Assembly: GCA_016873275.1 (NCBI GenBank)
Contig: VGXO01000001.1
Span: 61,678-125,677, forward strand
Length of the DNA: 64,000 bases
Direction of reading: 5' to 3'
Origin: Phycisphaerae bacterium
GTDB taxonomy: Bacteria > Planctomycetota > Phycisphaerae > Phycisphaerales > SM1A02
Shown: positions 3,962 through 64,000 of the stretch, in pieces
Layout: every line of letters starts with the position of its first letter
Position numbering within the stretch: position 1 is the stretch's first letter
Translations under genes and position numbers: made by a program
The notes under the pieces: model-generated
Told to the model about the DNA's origin: nothing
Databases searched by the model: none
What the model saw: only the letters and a program-made list of their open reading frames with translations

Positions 3962-5208
3962 GCGAGGCGGCGAGCGGCGCCCCGAGCGTCCTCATCATCA
4001 ATCAGTACTACGTCCCCGACGTCGCGTCGACGGGCCACCTCCTGCACGAGCTCGCGACCGAGATGGCCCGATCGGGTCGGTCGGTCAGCGTGACCACCTG
4101 CTTTCCTTCCTACGGCCCGCCCGAGACCTGGCAGGCGTGCCCGTCGCGCGAGGTGGCGGCGGGCGTCTCGGTGCGGCGGATGTGGACGACGCGGTTCAGC
4201 AAGGATCGGCTGCTCGGTCGACTGGTGAACTCGATCACGTTCCTGCTCCCGCTCGCGGTGCGGCAGTTCCTTCGACCTCGCTCCGCGGAGATCTGCCTCT
4301 ACACGAGCAATCCGCCCTACCTCGGCGTCATCGGCGGACTCGTGAGCCTCGCGAGGCGGCATCCCTACGTCGTGCTGCTGCACGACTCCTATCCCCACAT
4401 GCCGACGCTCCTCGGGAAGATCCGGCGGGGCGGACGGCTCGAGCGGGCGTGGCACCGCATGAACCGGCTGATGTACGGTCGCGCCCGCGGCACCATCGTC
4501 CTCTGCCGGCGGGCGAAGGAGCTGGTGTGTCGGGAGTACGGGCTCGATCCGGCGAAGGTCCACGTCGTCCACAACTGGGCCGATCCCGCCGCGCTTCGAC
4601 CCGTGCCGAAGCGGGACACCGCCTTCGCCCGGACGCACGGGCTCGTCGAGCCGTTCACCATCCTCTACTCCGGAAACCTCGGGCTCTACTACGACTTCGA
4701 CACGCTGCTCTCGGCGGCGGAGCGACTCTCCGGCGAGCCGTTCCGGCTCGTCCTGATCGGCGCGGGCGGCAAGCGGCAGCACCTCGCCGACGAGATCCGG
4801 CGGCGCCGGCTCTCGAACGTGCTGATGTTGCCCTACCAGCCGTTCGAGACGCTGAACGACAGCCTCAACGCCTGCGACGCGTCGCTCGTGACGATCGCCC
4901 CGGGCATCGAGGGGATCTCCTTCCCCTCGAAGCTCTACTCCTCGCTCGCGGCGGGCAAGCCGATCCTCGCGCTAGGCGAGCCCGGCTCGGAGCTCGAGGA
5001 GGTCGTGCGCGGCGCCGACTGCGGCGAGTGGTGCCGCGTGGGCGACGTGGACGCGGTGGTGGCGGCGGTCCGAAGGCTCATGGCGGATCCCGCCCGCGCC
5101 GAGGCGATGGGGCGACGCGCCCGCCGCGCGCTCGAGGAGAAGTTCACCCTCGGCTCCGCGACGCGGCGCTACGAGGAGATCCTCGACGCCGCGACGCGAC
5201 CGGAGTGA
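3958..5208 (+). CDS. GT4-family glycosyltransferase (WcaI-like)
   Basis: The ATG overlaps the fcl stop (ATGA). [33 protein letters not shown]... N-terminus, plus a C-terminal GT1/GT4 EX7E-type region. Confidence 0.85.
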
Positions 5209-5226: not shown

Positions 5227-6255
5227 TCAGGTCGAGGGGAACCGCCTCACCTCCGCGGGAGGCTGGCGCCACGTCACCGCGCGGTCCTTGCCCTCCGCGA
5301 GGTACCACTCCGCCATGCGCCGGATGCCCTCGCGGATCGAGACGCGGGAGCGGAATCCGGCGGCGGCGAGCTTCTCCGCCTCGAAGAGCGTCTCCATCTG
5401 GAAGAGCTTCCGGACCCGCATCGAGGAGACCGGCAGGTTCCAGCCGGTGAGGGCGATGACGAGGTCGAACGGCCTCGCGGCGAGCAGCACGAGCCACATC
5501 GGAAGCCGAACGCCCGCGGAGCGTCGGCCCAGCGCATCCGCCACCGCCTGGGCGATCTCGCGGCTCTTGAGGTCGGGCTTCTCGACGAAGTTGAAGACGT
5601 CGAAGCCCTCGCCGTGCCTCGCCCAGAGGTGCATGGTCGCGTCGACGAGGTTCTCGACGTAGGCGAGGCTCTTTCGGTTCACGCCGTCCCCGGCGACCAC
5701 GAACCGTCGCCGGTGGATCTGCCGGATGAGCGAGTACATGTTCGCGAGGTTGCGCGGTCCGAAGCAGATGGTCGGTCGGATGACGAGCGCCGAGCGCCCG
5801 CCGCCGAGCGCCGCCCACTCGCGCCAGACCGCCTCGCCGGCGAGCTTCGACGCGCCGTAGAAGTTGTTCGGTCGCGGCGTCGACTGCTCGTCGCGTGGCG
5901 CCGGGCAGTCGCCGTAGACCGCCACCGACGAGAACCAGCACGCCCGCCGGATGCCGCAGGCGTCGAGCGCCTCGCAGGTCAGCCGCGAGGCGTGCTCGTT
6001 GACGCCGAAGTAGGTCGCCTCGTCGATCCCGAAGTCGTGGTGCGCCGCGGCGAGGGCGAGCACCGCGTCCTGACCGGCGAACGCCCGACGGAGCGCGTCC
6101 GGATCGCGCACGTCGCCCTGCACGAAGCGGGTGACCCGCGAGCCGGGAGAGGGCGGATGCAGGTCAAGCGCGGTGACCTCCGCGCCCTCGCGCAGGAGGC
6201 GCTCCGTGAACCACTCCCCGATGAAGCCGGTGCCTCCCGTGATGCAGATCTTCAT
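5227..6255 (-). CDS. NAD-dependent epimerase/dehydratase
   Basis: Trimmed to MKICITGGTGFIGEW... (GxxGxxG). A YGASK (YxxxK) motif is present. Confidence 0.85.
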   Translation of the reverse strand: MKICITGGTGFIGEWFTERLLREGAEVTALDLHPPSPGSRVTRFVQGDVRDPDALRRAFAGQDAVLALAAAHHDFGIDEATYFGVNEHASRLTCEALDACGIRRACWFSSVAVYGDCPAPRDEQSTPRPNNFYGASKLAGEAVWREWAALGGGRSALVIRPTICFGPRNLANMYSLIRQIHRRRFVVAGDGVNRKSLAYVENLVDATMHLWARHGEGFDVFNFVEKPDLKSREIAQAVADALGRRSAGVRLPMWLVLLAARPFDLVIALTGWNLPVSSMRVRKLFQMETLFEAEKLAAAGFRSRVSIREGIRRMAEWYLAEGKDRAVTWRQPPAEVRRFPST

Positions 6256-10918: not shown

Positions 10919-12385
10919 ATGCAGGTCCAGAGCAACACGATGAGCAGCAAGAGCAGTCGTCGCCGCCGGCGCAAGGGCGGCGGTCAGGGCTTCCAGGGTC
11001 CTCCCGTCTCCGTCATGACGCTTCCCCCGGGCGCGGTCCCGAGCGACGCGCAGCTCGAGGCGGAGGCGCTCGCCCTCGAGGAGTCTGCCGGGGCGAAGTA
11101 CGAGGTCGCGAAGAAGGACTCCCTCAACCTCGCGGCGATGCAGCGGATGTCGGGCGACCAGCTCGCGAAGCTCGCCCGCGCCGAGGGGCTCGAGGACGCC
11201 CTCTCGCTTCCCAAGCAGCGGCTCGTCTTCGAGGTCCTACGCGCCCGCGCCCGCAAGCAGGGGCTCATGATGGCGGAGGGCACGCTCGAGCTGATGCCCG
11301 ACGGCTTCGGGTTCCTGCGGAGCGCCGAGTACTCCTACCTCCCGTCGCCCGACGACGTGTACGTCAGCCCCTCGCAGGTGCGTCGCTTCGCGCTGCGCCG
11401 CGGGCAGGTCGTGAAGGGACTCATCCGCCCGCCGCAGGAGGCGGAGACCTACTTCGCGCTCCTCCGCGTCGAGGAGGTCAACGGCCGAGATCCCAAGATC
11501 CTCCATGACCTGCCGACGTTCGAGAACCTCACGCCGCTGCATCCCAACCGCCGCATCCAGCTCGAGGTGATCGGCAAGCCGGAGAAGCTCGAGACCCGCG
11601 TGATCGACATGGTGACGCCGCTCGGCTTCGGGCAGCGGGCGCTGATCGTCGCGCCGCCGCGCACCGGCAAGACGGTGATCCTGCAGCAGCTCGCGAACGC
11701 GATCGCCCACAACCATCCCGACGTCCACGTCATCGTGCTGCTGATCGACGAGCGGCCGGAGGAGGTCACCGACTTCCGCCGCAACACGCCCTCGCGGGTC
11801 GAGGTCGTGGCGAGCACCTTCGACGAGGAGGCGTCGCGGCACATCCAGGTCGCGGAGATGGTGATGGAGAAGTCGCGCCGGATGGTCGAGTTCGGCGAGC
11901 ACGTGGTGATCCTGCTCGACTCGATCACCCGCCTCGCCCGCGGCTACAACAACGCGATGCCCAACTCCGGCAAGATCGGCTCGGGCGGCGTGGACAACGC
12001 GGCGCTCATCAAGCCGAAGAAGTTCTTCGGCTCCGCCCGCAACATCGAGAACGGCGGCTCGCTCACCATCCTCGGCACCGCGCTCGTCGACACCGGAAGC
12101 CGCGCCGACGAGGTGATCTTCGAGGAGTTCAAGGGCACCGGCAACGCCGAGCTCCACCTCGACCGCAAGCTCGTCGAGAAGCGGGTCTGGCCGGCGATCG
12201 ACATCTCCGCGAGCGGCACCCGCCGCGAGGAGCTCCTCCTCGACCCCAAGGAGCACGAGCTCATCACCCGGCTGCGGAAGGTGGTCTCGGACATGAACGT
12301 GGTCGAGGCGATGGAGCTGCTGCGGAGCCGGCTCTCGAAGACCAAGAGCAACGCCGAGTTCCTGATGACGATGAGCATGTCCTGA
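10919..12385 (+). CDS. rho: transcription termination factor Rho
   Basis: Trimmed from the 645-aa ORF to the in-frame ATG ([10 protein letters not shown]...). Has a Rho N-terminal/CSD region (GFGFLR) and the ATPase core (PPRTGKT...[10 protein letters not shown]). Confidence 0.93.
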
Positions 12386-13717: not shown

Positions 13718-13789
13718 GCCACCGTAGCTCAGTGGTAGAGCACACCCTTGGTAAGGGTGAGGTCGTGGGTTCAAGCCCCATCGGTGGCT
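13718..13789 (+). tRNA. tRNA-Thr (anticodon GGT)
   Basis: Cloverleaf drawn by hand. The acceptor GCCACCG pairs with CGGTGGC; the D arm is GCTC..GAGC. The anticodon loop is TTGGTAA and the T arm is GTGGGTTCAAGCCCCAT. No CCA is encoded. It has the classic position upstream of tuf. Confidence 0.9.
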
Positions 13790-13946
13790 CTCGCCGGGTC
13801 CTCCGCGACGGTGCGGGGACGCCTGGCTCGTCGAGATACGCCGCCTCGGGCGGTCCGGCACGTGGGTGCGGACGCCTTGGGCATCCAGTCACGGCCTGCG
13901 GAGCGTCGACACGCTCCGTCTCGGGCCCTTTCGGAGAACCGCCGCC

Positions 13947-15155
<1,209 letters not shown>

Positions 15156-15186
15156 ACCCGGCGCCCCCGGCACACGGAGCGATCCC

Positions 15187-15366
15187 ATGGCGAAGAAGTC
15201 CCTCGACCGAGAGTTCGTCTGGCTGCAGTGCAGCGAGTCCGGCGACCTCAACTACCGCACGAACGTGCGGGTGAAGGGCGGCATGTCGGAGCGCGTGAAG
15301 GAGGGGTTCATGAAGTTCAGCCCCCGGCTCCGCAAGCACACCCTCCACAAGGTCAAGCGCAAGTGA
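15187..15366 (+). CDS. rpmG: 50S ribosomal protein L33
   Basis: 59-aa ORF below the track cutoff, translated by hand: MAKKSLDREFVWLQCSESGDLNYRTNVRVKGGMSERVKEGFMKFSPRLRKHTLHKVKRK. It is L33-like (..RKHTLHKE-type tail) and sits in the tuf-rpmG-secE-nusG context. Confidence 0.85.
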   Translation: MAKKSLDREFVWLQCSESGDLNYRTNVRVKGGMSERVKEGFMKFSPRLRKHTLHKVKRK

Positions 15367-15372
15367 TCACCC

Positions 15373-15400
15373 GCCGGGGGCGCCTTCGGGCGCCCCCGGC
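15373..15400 (+). terminator. perfect 12-bp GC hairpin with TTCG loop; possible terminator or processing signal, no U-tract
   Basis: gccgggggcgcc-ttcg-ggcgcccccggc lies 6 nt after the rpmG stop and 6 nt before tRNA-Trp. Confidence 0.4.
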
Positions 15401-15405
15401 GTCGT

Positions 15406-15478
<73 letters not shown>

Positions 15479-15526
15479 CTGTCCAGAGGCGCGTCCCCGG
15501 CGCGCCGCCCCACGCGGAGACGTTCC

Positions 15527-58199: not shown

Positions 58200-60878
58200 T
58201 CACGGCATCCATTCGAGCGCCTCCCATCCGCCGCGATGGCGCTCGAGGCGAAGGAGCAGGGGACCGGACGCGCGGAGCGCGACGACCGCGCGGAGCGCCC
58301 CGTGCTCGGCGGTCGACGGCGGCGTCGGGCAGGATCGCGCGGCGAGCCCGGCGGCGAGGCGGTCGTCGAGGAGCCGCCGCGTCGAGCAGGAGCGGAGCCA
58401 GAGCGTCTCCCGCCACGACGCGAGCAGCTCGACCGCGTGGAGGTCGGCGGCGCCGTGATGGGGCACCTCCGCGACGAGCGGCTCCCCTCCGATCTCGATG
58501 GCGACGTCGTCGAGCCTCGGTCCGCCGAGGTCGCCGAAGGTGGCGAGGATCGCCCGTCCGCCGCGCGGATCCTCGAGGAGAAGCGCGAGCGACGCGTCGT
58601 TCGTCGCGATCGTCCGATCGCCTGGCGATGGTGCCATGACCCTCGCGCGGAGCCCGAGCGGTCTCGGCGGGAAGCCGGCGTCGGCGCGACCGATCTCGTC
58701 GCCCGCGGCGGCGATCATCACGGGGACGCCGCGACGCCGCGCCTCGGCGATGAGCAGCCGCTCGGACCTCGCCGCGTCGAGTCTTGCCCGCCGCGCCGTC
58801 TCCTCGCCCACGACGAGGAGGTCGGTCGGGATCCCGCCGAGCACCTCCGCGGCGCCGGAGAAGTGATCGAGGTCCGGATGGCTGACGACGAGCGCCTCGA
58901 GCCTGCGGATCCCGAGGGACCGACACGCCCGCACGATCATCGAGCCGGCTCGGGCGTCCCCGCCGCTGCCGCAGTCGATGAGGATCGCCGCCTGACCGCG
59001 GGCGACCGCGATCGCGGTGCCGTCGCCGACCGAGAGCGCGACGATCGCCACCTCGTCGGGTCGGCTCGACCATGGTGCCGGGATCATCAGCGCCGTGGTC
59101 GACGACGCGGCAGCGAGCAGCGAGAGCCGGGCGAGGAGGAGTGGTCGCCGCGGAATCCTCGCGTCTCCCCGCTCGCGCGGCGCCGAGAGCCACCATGCTC
59201 CCGCGAGGAGGAGCGCGACGCAGGACGCCGCGGGAGGCGCTGGTCCGGCGAGGTGGGACCCCGGCAGGCGCTCGGCGCACGCCGCGACCGCGATCATGAG
59301 CCGCGCGGCAAGGTCGAGGATCGAGCCCACGACGGGGGCAAGCCCCGGCGCGACGAGCGATGCGGGAAGACCCGCGGCCGCGGTCACGATCGCCGCCGCG
59401 GCGAGCGGGGAGGCGAGGATCGTCGCGGGCACGCCGAGGAGCGCCGCCTGCCCGAAGTGACCAAGCGCAATCGGCGTCGAGATGAGCCATGCCGCGGTCG
59501 AGGCGACGAGGGCGCCACCTCCCGTGCTCCGCAGGAGCGAAGCGGCATCGCCGAGGTCGCGGCGCGAGGGCAGCCAGCGGCGGCGGAGCCGAGGCGCGAG
59601 CTCCTCGAGCGCGACGACCGCGGCGAAGGAGAGCTGGAACGCGGCGCCCCGCGCCTCGCCCGGGGCGACCGCGAGCACGAGGATCGCCGCGAGCGCCGTC
59701 GCCGCGCGGGGGTCCCAGCGCCGCCCCAGCACCACGGCGAGCCCGATGATCGATGCCGCGAGCGCCGCCCGCAGCACCGGCACCGCCGGAGGAAGGACGA
59801 GGAGGTAGAGAAGGACCGCGGCGACCGCGGTCATCGCCCGCCGCGACGCCCGAGCCCCGACGAGCCCGGCGGCGGCGGAGGCGAGCGAGGCGATCACCGC
59901 GAGGTTGAAGCCGGAGATCGCGAGGAGATGCGCGAGTCCTGCCGCGGTGAACTGCTCGCGCACGCCTCGAAAGGACGCCGCCGAGCGCTCGCCGAGGAGG
60001 AGCGCCGCGAGGAGGTCCCGCCGTGCCGCGGCGCCCGGATCCGGATCCGCCCCGAGGGCGCTGCGGAGCGACTCCGATCCCGCCCCGCGAAGCCGCTCGC
60101 GCAGGCGCTCGAGGATCGGAGGCGTCGCGTCGTCGAGGGGTCGGAGGAGGCGACGATCGGCGACGACGAGGACGCCGAGACGCGGCGGCTCGAGCCGACC
60201 ACCGCCCGAGACGGATCGACCTGGATTCGGCGCCGGTCGTGGTCCGAGGAGGATCCCTCGCGCCTCGATCCTCGCGCCGACCGACGCGGGAATCGCGCTC
60301 GAGGGAAGGCGCACGTCGATTCGTCCATGGGCATCGACGGCGGGCATGCCGACGCCCGCGATCGACTCGACGTCGATCGAGAGGAGGATCGATCGGGTCC
60401 GCGGCAAGCGCTCCGCGAGGAGGTCGCCGCCGCCGTCGGCGCGCGGCGGCGCCGCGATCCGTCCGACGACCGTCGCCGGTCGCGGCGGACCCATGGCGAC
60501 GACCCGCGCGGCGAGGTCCTCGCGCACGCGGAGGTCCGCCCAGCCGGCGGCGAGGAGCACGACGGAGGCGAGCACGAGGATCGCGCGGCGGATCCCGTCG
60601 TGGCGCCTTCCCGCGAGGATCGAGAGGAGCGCGGCGACCGCGGCGGCGGCGAGCCAGGCTTGGTGCGGCGGACCGGCGGACGCCTCCGCGAGGGCACCGC
60701 GCATGCCGAGCGGACCATCCTCGATGGCGCCGCCCGTGCCGAGGACGGCGCCGGTCCACGCCGCGAGCGCGATCCACGTCGCGCGCGGCGGCGGGAGCGG
60801 GGGCTCCTCGGTGGATCGGTCGGGGTCCTCGTCGACCGCGTCGGCAAGGCGGGCGATCGCGCGTCGATCGGTCCTCAC
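58200..60878 (-). CDS. comEC: ComEC/Rec2 DNA internalization protein with C-terminal MBL domain
   Basis: 892 aa from a GTG start. ...LAHLLAISGFNLAVI... competence-domain signature, multiple TM helices, and a C-terminal ...ALSVGDGTAIAV...LIDCGSG...VVSHPDLDH. Confidence 0.9.
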   Translation of the reverse strand: MRTDRRAIARLADAVDEDPDRSTEEPPLPPPRATWIALAAWTGAVLGTGGAIEDGPLGMRGALAEASAGPPHQAWLAAAAVAALLSILAGRRHDGIRRAILVLASVVLLAAGWADLRVREDLAARVVAMGPPRPATVVGRIAAPPRADGGGDLLAERLPRTRSILLSIDVESIAGVGMPAVDAHGRIDVRLPSSAIPASVGARIEARGILLGPRPAPNPGRSVSGGGRLEPPRLGVLVVADRRLLRPLDDATPPILERLRERLRGAGSESLRSALGADPDPGAAARRDLLAALLLGERSAASFRGVREQFTAAGLAHLLAISGFNLAVIASLASAAAGLVGARASRRAMTAVAAVLLYLLVLPPAVPVLRAALAASIIGLAVVLGRRWDPRAATALAAILVLAVAPGEARGAAFQLSFAAVVALEELAPRLRRRWLPSRRDLGDAASLLRSTGGGALVASTAAWLISTPIALGHFGQAALLGVPATILASPLAAAAIVTAAAGLPASLVAPGLAPVVGSILDLAARLMIAVAACAERLPGSHLAGPAPPAASCVALLLAGAWWLSAPRERGDARIPRRPLLLARLSLLAAASSTTALMIPAPWSSRPDEVAIVALSVGDGTAIAVARGQAAILIDCGSGGDARAGSMIVRACRSLGIRRLEALVVSHPDLDHFSGAAEVLGGIPTDLLVVGEETARRARLDAARSERLLIAEARRRGVPVMIAAAGDEIGRADAGFPPRPLGLRARVMAPSPGDRTIATNDASLALLLEDPRGGRAILATFGDLGGPRLDDVAIEIGGEPLVAEVPHHGAADLHAVELLASWRETLWLRSCSTRRLLDDRLAAGLAARSCPTPPSTAEHGALRAVVALRASGPLLLRLERHRGGWEALEWMP

Positions 60879-60990: not shown

Positions 60991-61800
60991 TCAGCCGAGC
61001 GCGAGGCGACCACCGTCGACGGGCAGGTTCACGCCGGTGAGGTAGCTCGCCGCGGGCGAGGCGAGGAACGCGGCGACGCGGGCGATCTCCTCGGGCTCGG
61101 CGAAGCGCCGCATCGGCACGCCGCGGAGCGCGTCCTCCTCGACCTCGGCGACGCTCGAGCCACCGCGGCTTGCGCGACCCTTGAAGAGCGCCTCGAGCCG
61201 CGCGGTGCGGGTGAAGCCTGGCAGGATCGAGTTCACGGTGATCCCGAAGGGCGCGAGCTCGACCGCGAGCGTCCGCGCCCAGTTCGCGACGGCGCCGCGG
61301 ATCGTGTTCGAGACCCCGAGCCCGCGGATCGGCGTGACGACGGAGGTGGAGATCACGTTCACGACGCGGCCGTAGCGGCGCTCGCGCATCCCCGGGGCGA
61401 GCGCCTGCACCAGGATCTGCCCGCAGAGGAGGTGGTGCTCGAACGCCCGCGCGAAGTGGTCGGGCGACGCCTCGATCGCGGGACCGGCGGCGGGACCGCC
61501 GCCGTTGTGGACGAGGATCTCGACCGGTCCGCGCGAGGCGAGGAACGCGTGCACCTTGCCGCCGAGCGAGCGCCAGTCGTCGAGGTCCACCTCGAGCGAG
61601 GCGTGTCGCTGGGAGTCGGACCTCGGGAGCGCCTCGAGGGCACCGAGGGTCTTGGCGAGTCCGTCCGGGTTCCGACCCATCGCGACGACGCTCGCGCCGA
61701 GGCGGGCGAGCTCGAGGGCGATCGCCTTGCCGATTCCCTGCGTGGCGCCGCCGACGAGCGCGGTGCGTCGGGCGAGGGAGAAGTGGTTGGTCTCGCTCAT
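60991..61800 (-). CDS. short-chain dehydrogenase/reductase family protein
   Basis: Trimmed to MSETNHFSLARRTALVGGATQGIGKAIA (TGxxxGIG). ...GITVNSILPGF.... By my hand alignment the canonical YxxxK position reads SNTIR. Confidence 0.88.
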   Translation of the reverse strand: MSETNHFSLARRTALVGGATQGIGKAIALELARLGASVVAMGRNPDGLAKTLGALEALPRSDSQRHASLEVDLDDWRSLGGKVHAFLASRGPVEILVHNGGGPAAGPAIEASPDHFARAFEHHLLCGQILVQALAPGMRERRYGRVVNVISTSVVTPIRGLGVSNTIRGAVANWARTLAVELAPFGITVNSILPGFTRTARLEALFKGRASRGGSSVAEVEEDALRGVPMRRFAEPEEIARVAAFLASPAASYLTGVNLPVDGGRLALG

Positions 61801-61822
61801 GGCGTCGAGGGTAGCGGGAGGC

Positions 61823-62050
61823 GGCGCCTGCGGCCGCAGGCGCGGGGTTCGGGGGCTGGTGCTTCGGGAGTCTCGCGGGGCTATGGACACGGCGCGGGCG
61901 GCCGCAGGCGCGGGATTCGGGTGCTGGTGCTTCGGGAGTCTCGCGAGGCTTCGGACACGGCGCCTGCGGCCGCAGGCGCGGGGTTCGGGTGCTGGTGCTT
62001 CGGGAGTCTCGAGAGGCTTCGGATACGGCGCGGGTGGCCGCCGGGCCGAC
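61823..62050. repeat. 68-bp tandem repeat, 3 full copies plus a partial fourth; each copy starts with a GC palindrome around GCGGCCGC
   Basis: Copies start at 61823, 61891, 61959 and 62027. Copies 1 and 3 carry the perfect 20-bp palindrome GCGCCTGCGGCCGCAGGCGC. Confidence 0.85.
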
Positions 62051-62078
62051 CGTCGAGGTGCGCACACGGGCGTGGCCT

Positions 62079-62135
62079 GTGGACCCAGTAGACCTTGTGG
62101 ACCCAGTGGAGGTGGACGGCGTGTGGACGGTGGAC
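62079..62135. repeat. cluster of 5 GTGGAC hexamers, inverted relative to the downstream array
   Basis: gtggacccagtagaccttgtggacccagtggaggtggacggcgtgtggacggtggac. Anchored on the ORF 62095 start. Confidence 0.75.
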
Positions 62136-62164
62136 GTTGGTGCGGCAGGCTGGCGACGTTCGGA

Positions 62165-62885
62165 CGCGGCGCCTGCGGCCGCAGGCACTGGATTCCTGTT
62201 GCCGTGCTACGGCAGTCTTGCGTGACTCCGGAAGCCCGTGCTTCGGAAGGCATCCATCACCCAGGTGCAGCGCTTCGCCCACCCAGTTGTCCACCGGGTC
62301 CACTGGGTCCACCGGGTCCACGTCCACCGATCCGAAGTCCCATGACGACGGAAGGCGCCCGCCACGCGAGCCCGTGCTTCGGAAGGCATCCGCCCGTCAC
62401 CGCAGCGCTTCGCCCACCCAGTTGTCTACTGGGTCCACTGGGTCCACCGGGTCCACGTCCACCGACCCGAAGTCCCATGACGACGGAAGGCGTCCGCCGC
62501 GCGAGCCTGTGCGACGGAAGGTGTCCGCGACTCCGGCAGCCCGTTCTTCGGGGAGCGTCCATCATCCAGGTGCAGCGCTTCGCCCACCCAGTTGTCCACA
62601 AGGTCCACTGGGTCCACCGGGTCCACGTCCACCGATCCGAAGTCCCATGACGACGGAAGGCGCCCGCCACGCGAGGCTGTGCGACGGAAGGCATCCGCGA
62701 CTCCGGAAGCCCGTGCTTCGGAAGGCATCCATCATCCATGGTGCAGCGCTTCGCCCACCCAGTTGTCTACTGGGTCCACTGGGTCCACCGGGTCCACGTC
62801 CACCGACGAACACCACCACCGGGTCCACGTCCACCGATCCGAAGTCCCACGACGACGGAAGGCATCCGCCGCGCGAGACCCTCGC
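62165..62885. repeat. 135-171-bp tandem units (4 units plus a leading partial), each with 4-6 GTCCAC hexamers at 9-bp phasing and 3 CGGAAGGC motifs
   Basis: Unit starts (GCGCTTCGCCCACCCAGTTGTC...) at 62270, 62405, 62575 and 62746. The spacings are 135, 170 and 171 bp. Confidence 0.85.
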
Positions 62886-62904
62886 CTCCCACTACACTCG
62901 CCCC

Positions 62905-63324
62905 ATGCACGACGTCCACTCCTCCCGCGCGGCGGAGCCGGTGGGGCCGTTCCCGCACGCGAAGCGGGTCGGCGGTCTCCTCTTCCTCTCGGGGATCGGT
63001 CCGCGCCGCCGGGGCGAGAAGGCGATCCCGGGCGTCACGCTCGCCGTCGACGGCACCGTCGCCGCCTACGACTTCGAGGTCCAGTGCCGCGCGTGCATCG
63101 AGAACGTGCGGCTCGTGATGGAGGACGCGGGCGTCCCATTCGATCGCATCGTGGACGTCACCGCGTTCCTGACCGACATGAAGAAGGACTTCGCGGCGTT
63201 CAACCGGATCTACGGCGAGCACTTCGCCGGACCGGGTCGCCCCAACCCGACCCGCACCACCATCGAGGTCGGGAGCCTTCCCACCCCGATCGCGGTCGAG
63301 CTGAAGGTGATCGCGGCGGGCTGA
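62905..63324 (+). CDS. ridA: RidA/YjgF-family reactive-intermediate deaminase
   Basis: Trimmed to MHDVHSSRAAEPVGPFPHAKRVGGLLFLSG.... C-terminal ...PTRTTIEVGSLPTPIAVELKVIA. A TACACT hexamer lies 6 nt upstream of the ATG. Confidence 0.9.
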   Translation: MHDVHSSRAAEPVGPFPHAKRVGGLLFLSGIGPRRRGEKAIPGVTLAVDGTVAAYDFEVQCRACIENVRLVMEDAGVPFDRIVDVTAFLTDMKKDFAAFNRIYGEHFAGPGRPNPTRTTIEVGSLPTPIAVELKVIAAG

Positions 63325-63593
63325 GGCGGGTCGGGGGCGGTCCATCCGGCGCCTCAGCCGTTGCCGTCGGTGAGGCGCTGCACTAGTCTCGCTCGACCGG
63401 GGCGCGCGACCTCGTCTGGTCGCGGGAACCGGTGGAAGGACGACGCTTGAGCCGACCTGCTCCAGAGGAGTTCCGCGTCGACGAGGAGACCCGCCTCGAG
63501 GCGGCGACGGATCCCTCTCCAGGCGGCACCGTCTTCGGGTCCGAGGACGTGGAGGTCCCGCCGGCCGAGACGACCGGCGGAACGGTCGAGCCG

Positions 63594-64000
63594 ATGCCGA
63601 CCCCGCCGCCGCGTCCGCAGGACGCGCGGAGCGCGTCGCCTCGACGAACCGCCGAATCAGCGCCGCCGGTCCGTGACCGCATCGTCATCCTCGGACGCCG
63701 CAACGCCGGCAAGACCATCTTCCTCGCGCGGCTCTACGAGCGCCTCTGGAAGTCGACCGGCTCGATCCACATGCGGGCGCTCGACGGCAACGACCACCTC
63801 TTCTTCATGGAGTCGATCCGCGTGCTCGGCGACCGCGTGTGGCCGCCCGCCACCGGATCGAGCACCCGCGTCAGGCTCGAGGTCCTCCTCGACGGGCGAC
63901 CACGGACCCTCTGCTCGCTCGACTACTCCGGCGAGGTCTTCCGTCGGGCGTTCCTCGAGCAGGTCGAGGACGCGGATACCGCCGAGCTCCTCGATCATCT
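63594..64000 (+). CDS. P-loop GTPase-like protein, partial (continues beyond the window)
   Basis: Hand translation with the frame anchored on the antisense ORF 63657..63998: MPTPPPRPQDARSASPRRTAESAPPVRDRIVILGRRNAGKTIFLARLYERLW...LCSLDYSGEVFRRAF.... G1 motif GRRNAGKT and G3-like DYSGE. An in-frame TTG at 63447 would add an acidic N-terminal extension. Confidence 0.55.
   Translation, partial: MPTPPPRPQDARSASPRRTAESAPPVRDRIVILGRRNAGKTIFLARLYERLWKSTGSIHMRALDGNDHLFFMESIRVLGDRVWPPATGSSTRVRLEVLLDGRPRTLCSLDYSGEVFRRAFLEQVEDADTAELLDH

Follow-up and report, generated by a model that had tools for sequence, protein, structure and literature searches.

A probable expanded locus of a dispersed mosaic repeat family separating SDR and ridA in an uncultured Phycisphaerae lineage from a lake

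Much is known about interspersed mosaic repeats in enterobacteria, pneumococci, neisseriae and mycobacteria. The pneumococcal BOX element, with the order boxA-boxB(n)-boxC, is non-coding and is found at many loci, exclusively in intergenic DNA. It is assembled from distinct modules with a variable internal tandem number, has no transposase of its own, and can lie near promoters and affect neighbouring genes. The repeat block described here resembles BOX in these respects, the likeness being one of architecture only; its modules are larger and more nested (9/31/34/68/135-171 bp), it comes from a different phylum, and no stable fold is predicted for its units, in contrast to BOX. The MIRU/VNTR loci of Mycobacterium tuberculosis offer a second parallel, comprising intergenic direct tandem repeats at many loci of a high-GC genome with strain-variable copy number. 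MIRUs, however, measure 46-101 bp and often contain small ORFs overlapping the flanking stop and start codons, whereas the units here are 135-171 bp long, mosaic and out of frame with each other.

The REP/BIME elements of enterobacteria and pseudomonads are likewise extragenic mosaics of palindromic and other short motifs, both clustered and dispersed; they bind host proteins (IHF, gyrase), and REPINs are mobilised by RAYT transposases. In the present block, by contrast, the main unit is not palindromic, a 20-bp palindrome occurs only in the 68-bp module, where it is degenerate in most copies with uncompensated changes, and palindromes do not alternate in orientation. MITEs such as Correia in Neisseria and RUP in pneumococcus are small non-autonomous intergenic insertions, present or absent between relatives and able to displace or donate promoter parts, features which the block shares; it differs in forming tandem arrays and in having terminal inverted repeats only at chance level. 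The defining feature of neither REP (a palindromic unit) nor MITEs (terminal inverted repeats) was found. A literature search turned up no interspersed mosaic repeats for Planctomycetota or Phycisphaerae.

The window, meaning the whole 64,000-nucleotide stretch of DNA that was analysed, contains a divergent SDR/ridA gene pair separated by a spacer at 61801-62904 (1102-1104 bp, about 70% GC), which on direct reading is entirely repetitive and hierarchical. The ComEC, SDR and RidA proteins encoded there have identical counterparts in a Phycisphaerae MAG, where they are three consecutive NCBI proteins. With a probability of roughly 65%, the block represents an expanded locus of a non-coding mosaic repeat family that is both young and dispersed, in a Phycisphaerae lineage that is uncultured and comes from a lake. 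It is best read as a known kind of bacterial repeat, BOX/MIRU/BIME-like, and not as a new RNA gene or system, with no sequence relation to anything in the databases searched. Table 1 lists the modules of the block, its flanking genes and the other loci at which units were found.

Table 1. Features of the SDR/ridA region in window coordinates, followed by other loci carrying units.
Feature	Coordinates	Strand	Description
SDR family oxidoreductase, 269 aa	60991..61800	-	divergent flanking gene; start codon 61800-61798
-10-like hexamer TACCCT (AGGGTA on + strand)	61808..61813	-	7 nt upstream of SDR start codon; native flank of repeat block
68-bp tandem array, 3.2 copies	61822..62041	+	Tandem Repeats Finder score 356
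Module X	62042..62160	+	unique-looking stretch, then GTGGAC boxes at 62076-62135
Element left part	62161..62263	+	palindrome copy 62169-62188, plus two ~34-nt sub-repeats of type GTGCTACGGCAG... / GTGCTTCGGAAGGCATCC
Unit 1, 135 bp	62264..62398	+	core GCAGCGCTTCGCCCACCCAGTT, 5 GTCCAC boxes, GAAGTCCCATGACGACGGAAGGCG, one sub-repeat
Unit 2, 170 bp	62399..62568	+	core as unit 1; two sub-repeats
Unit 3, 171 bp	62569..62739	+	core as unit 1; two sub-repeats
Unit 4, 138 bp	62740..62877	+	core with 31-bp internal duplication GTCCACGTCCACCGA CGAACACCACCACCGG GTCCACGTCCACCGA; array end
-10-like hexamer TACACT	62893..62898	+	6 nt upstream of ridA ATG
ridA, 139 aa, Ribonuc_L-PSP	62905..63324	+	flanking gene; ATG at 62905
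Units in L206			between feoB-associated small ORF and Na/H exchanger; contig interior
Two-unit block in L207			between two convergent genes; contig interior
Units in L201 (= L214) and L225			upstream of alkaline phosphatase (L201, contig interior), adjoining four-helix-bundle gene
Unit in L225			after feoB-associated small ORF; contig interior
Units in L200			at contig ends beside ABC-F and DEAD-box helicase genes
Units in L198, L202, L208, L211, L196/L203			at contig ends beside other genes

The initial annotation had placed the starts of four units at 62270, 62405, 62575 and 62746, and direct reading finds the GCGCTTCGCC... starts at these positions. Its description of modular units differing by a 35-bp indel, with a duplicated block in unit 4, is also borne out: the 35 bp by which unit types differ correspond to one copy of a ~34-nt sub-repeat (GTGC..CGGAAGGC..TCCGC), present one to three times per unit, and the duplication spans 31 bp. 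The distance from the last unit to the ridA ATG, previously given as about 20 bp, is corrected to 27 nt (unit end at about 62877, ATG at 62905). Within a unit the five GTCCAC boxes follow one another at a 9-bp period for four of them, with one 6-bp step. Each 68-bp copy further upstream holds the 20-bp palindrome GCGCCTGCGGCCGCAGGCGC or a degenerate form of it, together with GTGCTTCGGGAG / GGCTTCGGACA motifs, and the GTGGAC boxes of module X are the GTCCAC boxes of the units in reversed orientation and at different spacing (inverted repeats I1-I17; minus-strand nhmmer match 62110-62079). The element's left part (62161-62263) matches that of the single elements found in L215 and L225.

Direct reading, Tandem Repeats Finder and a repeat search agree with the earlier claim that the whole spacer of about 1.1 kb is repeat DNA. 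Tandem Repeats Finder reports a period of 135 at 62233-62528 (score 466) and of 170 at 62402-62807 (score 700), and the repeat search recovers four copies of a 67-nt core, with 93-100% identity and a spacing of 135/170/171 bp. Motif counts in the window exceed those of shuffled sequences, with four matches to GAAGTCCCATGACGACGGAAGGCG (0, 0, 0 and 2 mismatches) against 0.00 expected, four to GTGCTTCGGAAGGCATCC against 0.08, and 19 to the box pair GTCCACNGGGTCCAC against 0.86, 16 of the 19 lying in the SDR/ridA spacer. Motif scans and nhmmer found the repeat modules nowhere in the 64-kb window outside this spacer.

Nearly all Lake Tanganyika metagenome contigs carrying identical RidA, SDR and ComEC proteins end inside the repeat block, the entire block is spanned by one assembly only, namely the window's own contig, and at least one further contig (L007) looks chimeric across the repeat. 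These observations would fit a tandem structure produced by short-read assembly, the artefact against which the initial annotation had cautioned, and yet such an origin is highly improbable. L001 and L006, which derive from different samples, match the window at 100% from 62347 or 62370 to 64000, reproducing 3.4 units identically, while L011 matches at 99.96% up to 62145 before breaking. Several samples, some of them from separate studies, show two to four units, which are not collapsed copies, as their sequences differ from each other. The synteny of relatives confirms the adjacency of SDR and ridA, and units at other loci sit in contig interiors. The 3.4 rightmost units are independently supported and the repeats are real; it is the exact copy number in the window that rests on one contig.

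The number of modules differs between strains. In short-read contigs, one unit precedes ridA in L215, two in L008, L003 and L221, and at least two in L222, a contig beginning inside a third, compared with four in the window. Module X is doubled in L013 and L012, the latter having the order [68x3]-X-pal-U-U-[68]-X-pal-U-U. Assembly error may account for part of the apparent variation in arrangement: in L007 the left flank of the feoB locus is connected to ridA, through a rearrangement or, more probably, a chimeric join across the repeat. The 3' flank of the feoB-associated small ORF leads through the repeat to three different right-hand genes, namely the Na/H exchanger in L206, ridA in L007 and a four-helix-bundle gene in L225, the shared left flank lying at L007 1-220, in L206 (reverse strand) and at L225 2560-2900. 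This sharing reflects either repeat-mediated rearrangement or chimeric metagenome contigs. A relative at 81% identity (L223) supports the Na/H exchanger as the probable native neighbour of the feoB flank.

A search for the unit elsewhere, as had been proposed, was productive. Beyond SDR/ridA, BLAST and nhmmer located units in at least eight other intergenic regions of metagenomes from the same lake, in intergenic DNA only. A metagenome scan with the 19-mer AAGTCCCAYGACGACGGAA returned 19 stretches, 13 containing real units and the remainder bare matches to the 19-mer. Sample, GC content and protein relatives place these other loci in the same or a closely related population. The family is mosaic and occupies many intergenic loci, following a fixed and cyclic module order (68 - X - palindrome/sub-repeats - U(n) - 68 ...) of which each locus is a segment. 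Arrays comprise one to four units with one or two sub-repeats, three or five boxes and one to three copies of the 31-bp block. The 68-bp module recurs at L200 3856-4005, in L202 and at L214 1-375, and module X recurs in L202, while the terminal variant seen as unit 4 precedes gene starts in L206, L201 (with the 31-bp block triplicated) and L211. At five loci the element's right end lies against a start codon, and at three it meets the 3' end of a convergent gene. Given this mixed orientation to its neighbours, the element does not qualify as a dedicated promoter or leader.

The family is non-autonomous, with no transposase or composite-transposon structure detected in Pfam searches around L198, L200, L201 and L214, where the flanking genes are ordinary or without match. 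Adjoining the two-unit block of L207, a 128-aa protein (4459-4845) has C-terminal two thirds of near-pure Glu/Asp. A four-helix-bundle gene lies directly downstream of the element at L201 62-763, L214 4815-5516 and L225 2938-3495, and in L201 and L214 its product shows a weak, sub-threshold match to the 23S rRNA intervening-sequence protein PF05635. Genes of that protein family often travel with mobile DNA.

Orthologous sites differ in the presence or absence of the element, with SDR/ridA spacers of 68, 296 and about 1104 bp and feoB-locus spacers of 103 and about 400 bp. In L215 and L216 (about 88% DNA identity), the divergent SDR/ridA pair encloses a 296-bp spacer with exactly one element. 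In L227-L229, where SDR is 90% identical, the spacer measures 68 bp (2433-2500 in L227) and the element is absent; it is also absent from L226 (SDR 87% identical). At the feoB locus, the 103-bp spacer of L223 lacks the element, compared with the spacer of about 400 bp in L206 that contains it. The element has been acquired at SDR/ridA, and judging from the spacer series the window block appears to be an insertion that subsequently expanded in place. Its absence in slightly more distant relatives indicates that the family is young and limited to a narrow clade, and its 35 distinct unit variants are more than 90% alike. Between lineages, the orthologous element retains 86-89% identity, whereas the values are 81-89% for third codon positions and 75-79% for two other spacers; as the element is about as similar as third codon positions, this result is not decisive for extra constraint, and selective constraint on the element is probably weak at most.

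Empty (L227, L223) and filled sites are too diverged for the junctions to be placed to the base, and no target-site duplication is recognisable. When the left end of single elements was compared with the reverse complement of the right end, terminal inverted repeats were at chance level, with 456 of 500 shuffles scoring at least as high as the real sequence for L215 and 55 of 500 for L225. Plasmid and phage collections gave no match in distant-mode BLAST, and viral contigs scanned with the specific 19-mer gave 0 matches. A MITE or IS end was accordingly rejected, and the suggestion that the unit might match a known mobile-element terminus found no backing. With no transposase, terminal inverted repeat or target-site duplication detected, mobility is inferred only from presence/absence and the multi-locus distribution. 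A CRISPR array was rejected as well, given that the whole unit is repeated without unique spacers and that no cas genes occur among the neighbours. The earlier statement that the block is not a CRISPR, riboswitch or IS end thus holds, in the absence of any Rfam, plasmid or phage match, unique spacers or above-chance terminal inverted repeats.

For the expanded mosaic repeat, a plausible history can be proposed. The basic element would measure about 190-235 bp, consisting of a half or whole palindrome, two or three ~34-nt sub-repeats, the box-array core and then GAAGTCCCATGACGACGGAAGGCG. One such element may have entered the 68-bp SDR/ridA spacer between the two -10-like hexamers, after which unequal homologous recombination or replication slippage would have changed the number of modules, the element being prone to these processes because it is built from nested direct repeats (9, 31, ~34, 68 and 135-171 bp). 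The outcome would be one, two or four units, and duplicated 68-bp and X modules, in different strains. Spread between loci could have proceeded via transposition in trans or recombination, and the repeats, occupying the upstream regions of both flanking promoters, may affect both.

Two conserved -10-like hexamers, each located 6-7 nt ahead of a start codon, bracket the repeat block, and these flanks are kept in all three spacer states. On the SDR side, the flank GGGTAGCG is retained in the one-element (L215) and empty (L227, L226) relatives. On the ridA side, the hexamer remains 6 nt before the ATG, reading TACACT in the window, TAGACT in L215 and TACGCT in L227, with the consensus TA(C/G)(A/G)CT. 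No Shine-Dalgarno sequence precedes SDR or ridA. From these sequences we infer that both genes are probably leaderless, the hexamers flanking the insertion being parts of putative promoters. Because the space upstream of both -10 hexamers is filled by repeats, the more distal promoter parts would have to come from, or read through, repeat DNA, and a change in module copy number could alter SDR/ridA expression.

A TAnnnT hexamer 6-7 nt before the start, with no Shine-Dalgarno sequence, is found at SDR, ridA and several other repeat-adjacent genes, including sites at L201 ~5650-5680 and L202 ~12190-12230 (reverse strand). The pattern suggests that leaderless mRNAs may be common in this Phycisphaerae lineage. 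Downstream of ridA, all relatives carry a DO-GTPase1 (double-GTPase) gene and a gene for a 638-aa protein without Pfam match, located at 63448-64000 of the window and beyond (L001 1101-4161). In L226 this DO-GTPase1/638-aa pair directly adjoins SDR, with no ridA called between.

Immediately upstream of ridA and on its strand, the four units follow one another head to tail, making co-transcription possible, and they contain recurring CUUCGG motifs. Such an arrangement could suit units that are each an sRNA gene or a structured 5'-UTR element, whether as tandem sRNAs, as the initial annotation had considered, or as a riboswitch-like ridA leader. We hold this to be very improbable in view of several results. 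Rfam 15 yielded no relevant match at E<=10 in 61000-64000, with one chance miRNA match elsewhere, and only two tRNAs were identified by Rfam in the whole window. The fold of the unit does not stand out from shuffles (z = -0.25 on the plus strand, +1.13 on the minus strand). The RNAalifold consensus of 21 variants is weak (-29.3 kcal/mol, covariation term -0.36), and the covariation check that had been recommended gave 0 of 42 compensated pairs, while in a separate count over 22 variants 1 of 42 plus-strand pairs and 0 of 40 minus-strand pairs were compensated; these covariation tests are low-powered because the copies are more than 90% alike. A scan for sigma-70 promoters and intrinsic terminators returned 0 sites, neither promoter-like nor terminator-like. 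Units at L200, L207 and L196 face the 3' end of convergent genes, and the position of the -10-like hexamer, 6 nt ahead of the ridA ATG, points to a leaderless mRNA lacking such a leader.

An open frame at 62095-63324 runs in phase with ridA, and some gene callers give RidA as 159-172 aa. The repeats might then be coding or coding-derived, forming either a collagen-like G-P-X protein (the reading of the box run GPPGPLGPPGPR) or an N-terminal extension of RidA, and the box pattern does match collagen-like coding repeats in many unrelated genomes. The probability of a coding origin is nevertheless close to negligible. Unit lengths of 135, 169-171 and 138 bp, with indels of 9, 31 and 35 bp, put successive units in different frames, and at 70-75% GC long open frames are the rule. 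In the TTCAAAG variants, a stop codon interrupts a mini-ORF on the opposite strand. RidA of relatives is 139 aa long and starts at the same ATG behind a 68-bp spacer, and units are found after stop codons and between convergent genes.

The DNA pattern GGTCCACNGGGTCCACNGGGTCCAC corresponds to a Gly-Pro-X codon pattern and matches coding repeats in unrelated bacteria and viral contigs (L014-L195). As it reads Gly-Pro-X in one frame, the scan recovered collagen-like coding repeats, and among the matches listed for GGTCCACNGGGTCCACNGGGTCCAC (at least 182 loci in genome and viral contigs) none holds the unit beyond a box run of 30-50 nt. Patterns of this type constitute a trap for motif searches in high-GC DNA.

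The boxes themselves invite a further explanation, in which the units would be arrays of binding sites for a DNA-binding protein, with DnaA, a response-regulator-like factor or a nucleoid protein as candidates, and the family would serve genome-wide as a platform for cis-regulation or titration. With five direct GTCCAC boxes per unit and inverted ones in module X, the hexamer is 74 times denser in the region (20 in 1.1 kb) than outside it (17 in 63 kb). The non-homologous modules U and X share this hexamer in opposite orientation and at different spacing, and the alignment conservation line shows variable columns at 5 of 30 hexamer positions versus 4 of 9 in the spacers. The first box of each unit, TTGTCCACC, agrees at 8 of 9 positions with the actinobacterial DnaA box consensus TTGTCCACA, a likeness that serves as a lead only. 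We regard this explanation as unlikely. The remaining boxes (GGGTCCACY) agree with the DnaA box at only about 5 of 9 positions, and a head-to-tail spacing of 9 bp with one 6-bp step is atypical for known direct-repeat binders. No AT-rich unwinding element is present, dnaA and dnaN are not nearby, no candidate protein was identified, and the boxes are too few for statistical significance. Relatives at 81-90% protein identity lack the arrays in the matching spacers, so the arrays do not constitute a conserved regulatory feature. An oriC was rejected separately, the arrays being multi-locus, about 70% GC and absent in close relatives, with only the first box per unit approaching TTGTCCACA.

Within the family alignment, the core carrying the GTCCAC boxes is more uniform than the sub-repeat region. 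Together with the re-use of the hexamer in module X, this uniformity hints at possible selection on the boxes, a feature that a purely selfish or neutral reading of the repeats would seem not to explain. It is conceivable, though rather unlikely, that the box arrays are the selected part of the element, recruiting a host- or element-specific DNA-binding protein and forming a lineage-specific platform, tunable by copy number, between core promoters. If so, the platform might for example sequester DnaA or a global regulator, or insulate the divergent leaderless promoters.

Understood as an expanded mosaic repeat, the family has practical bearings on metagenomics and strain comparison. It breaks up the metagenome assemblies of this lake lineage and probably gives rise to chimeric joins, a concern for MAG quality, and it could serve as a VNTR-type strain marker. 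The natural series of 0, 1, 2 and 4 units between two apparently leaderless divergent promoters could be used to probe the effect of repeats on promoters.

Two further observations concern the remainder of the window. The ComEC coding region contains a 33-bp tandem duplication at 60676-60743 (2 copies, 80% match). At 13718-15479, tRNA-Thr(GGT) and tRNA-Trp(CCA) flank an ORF (13761-15155), an arrangement resembling the usual tuf / secE-nusG region.
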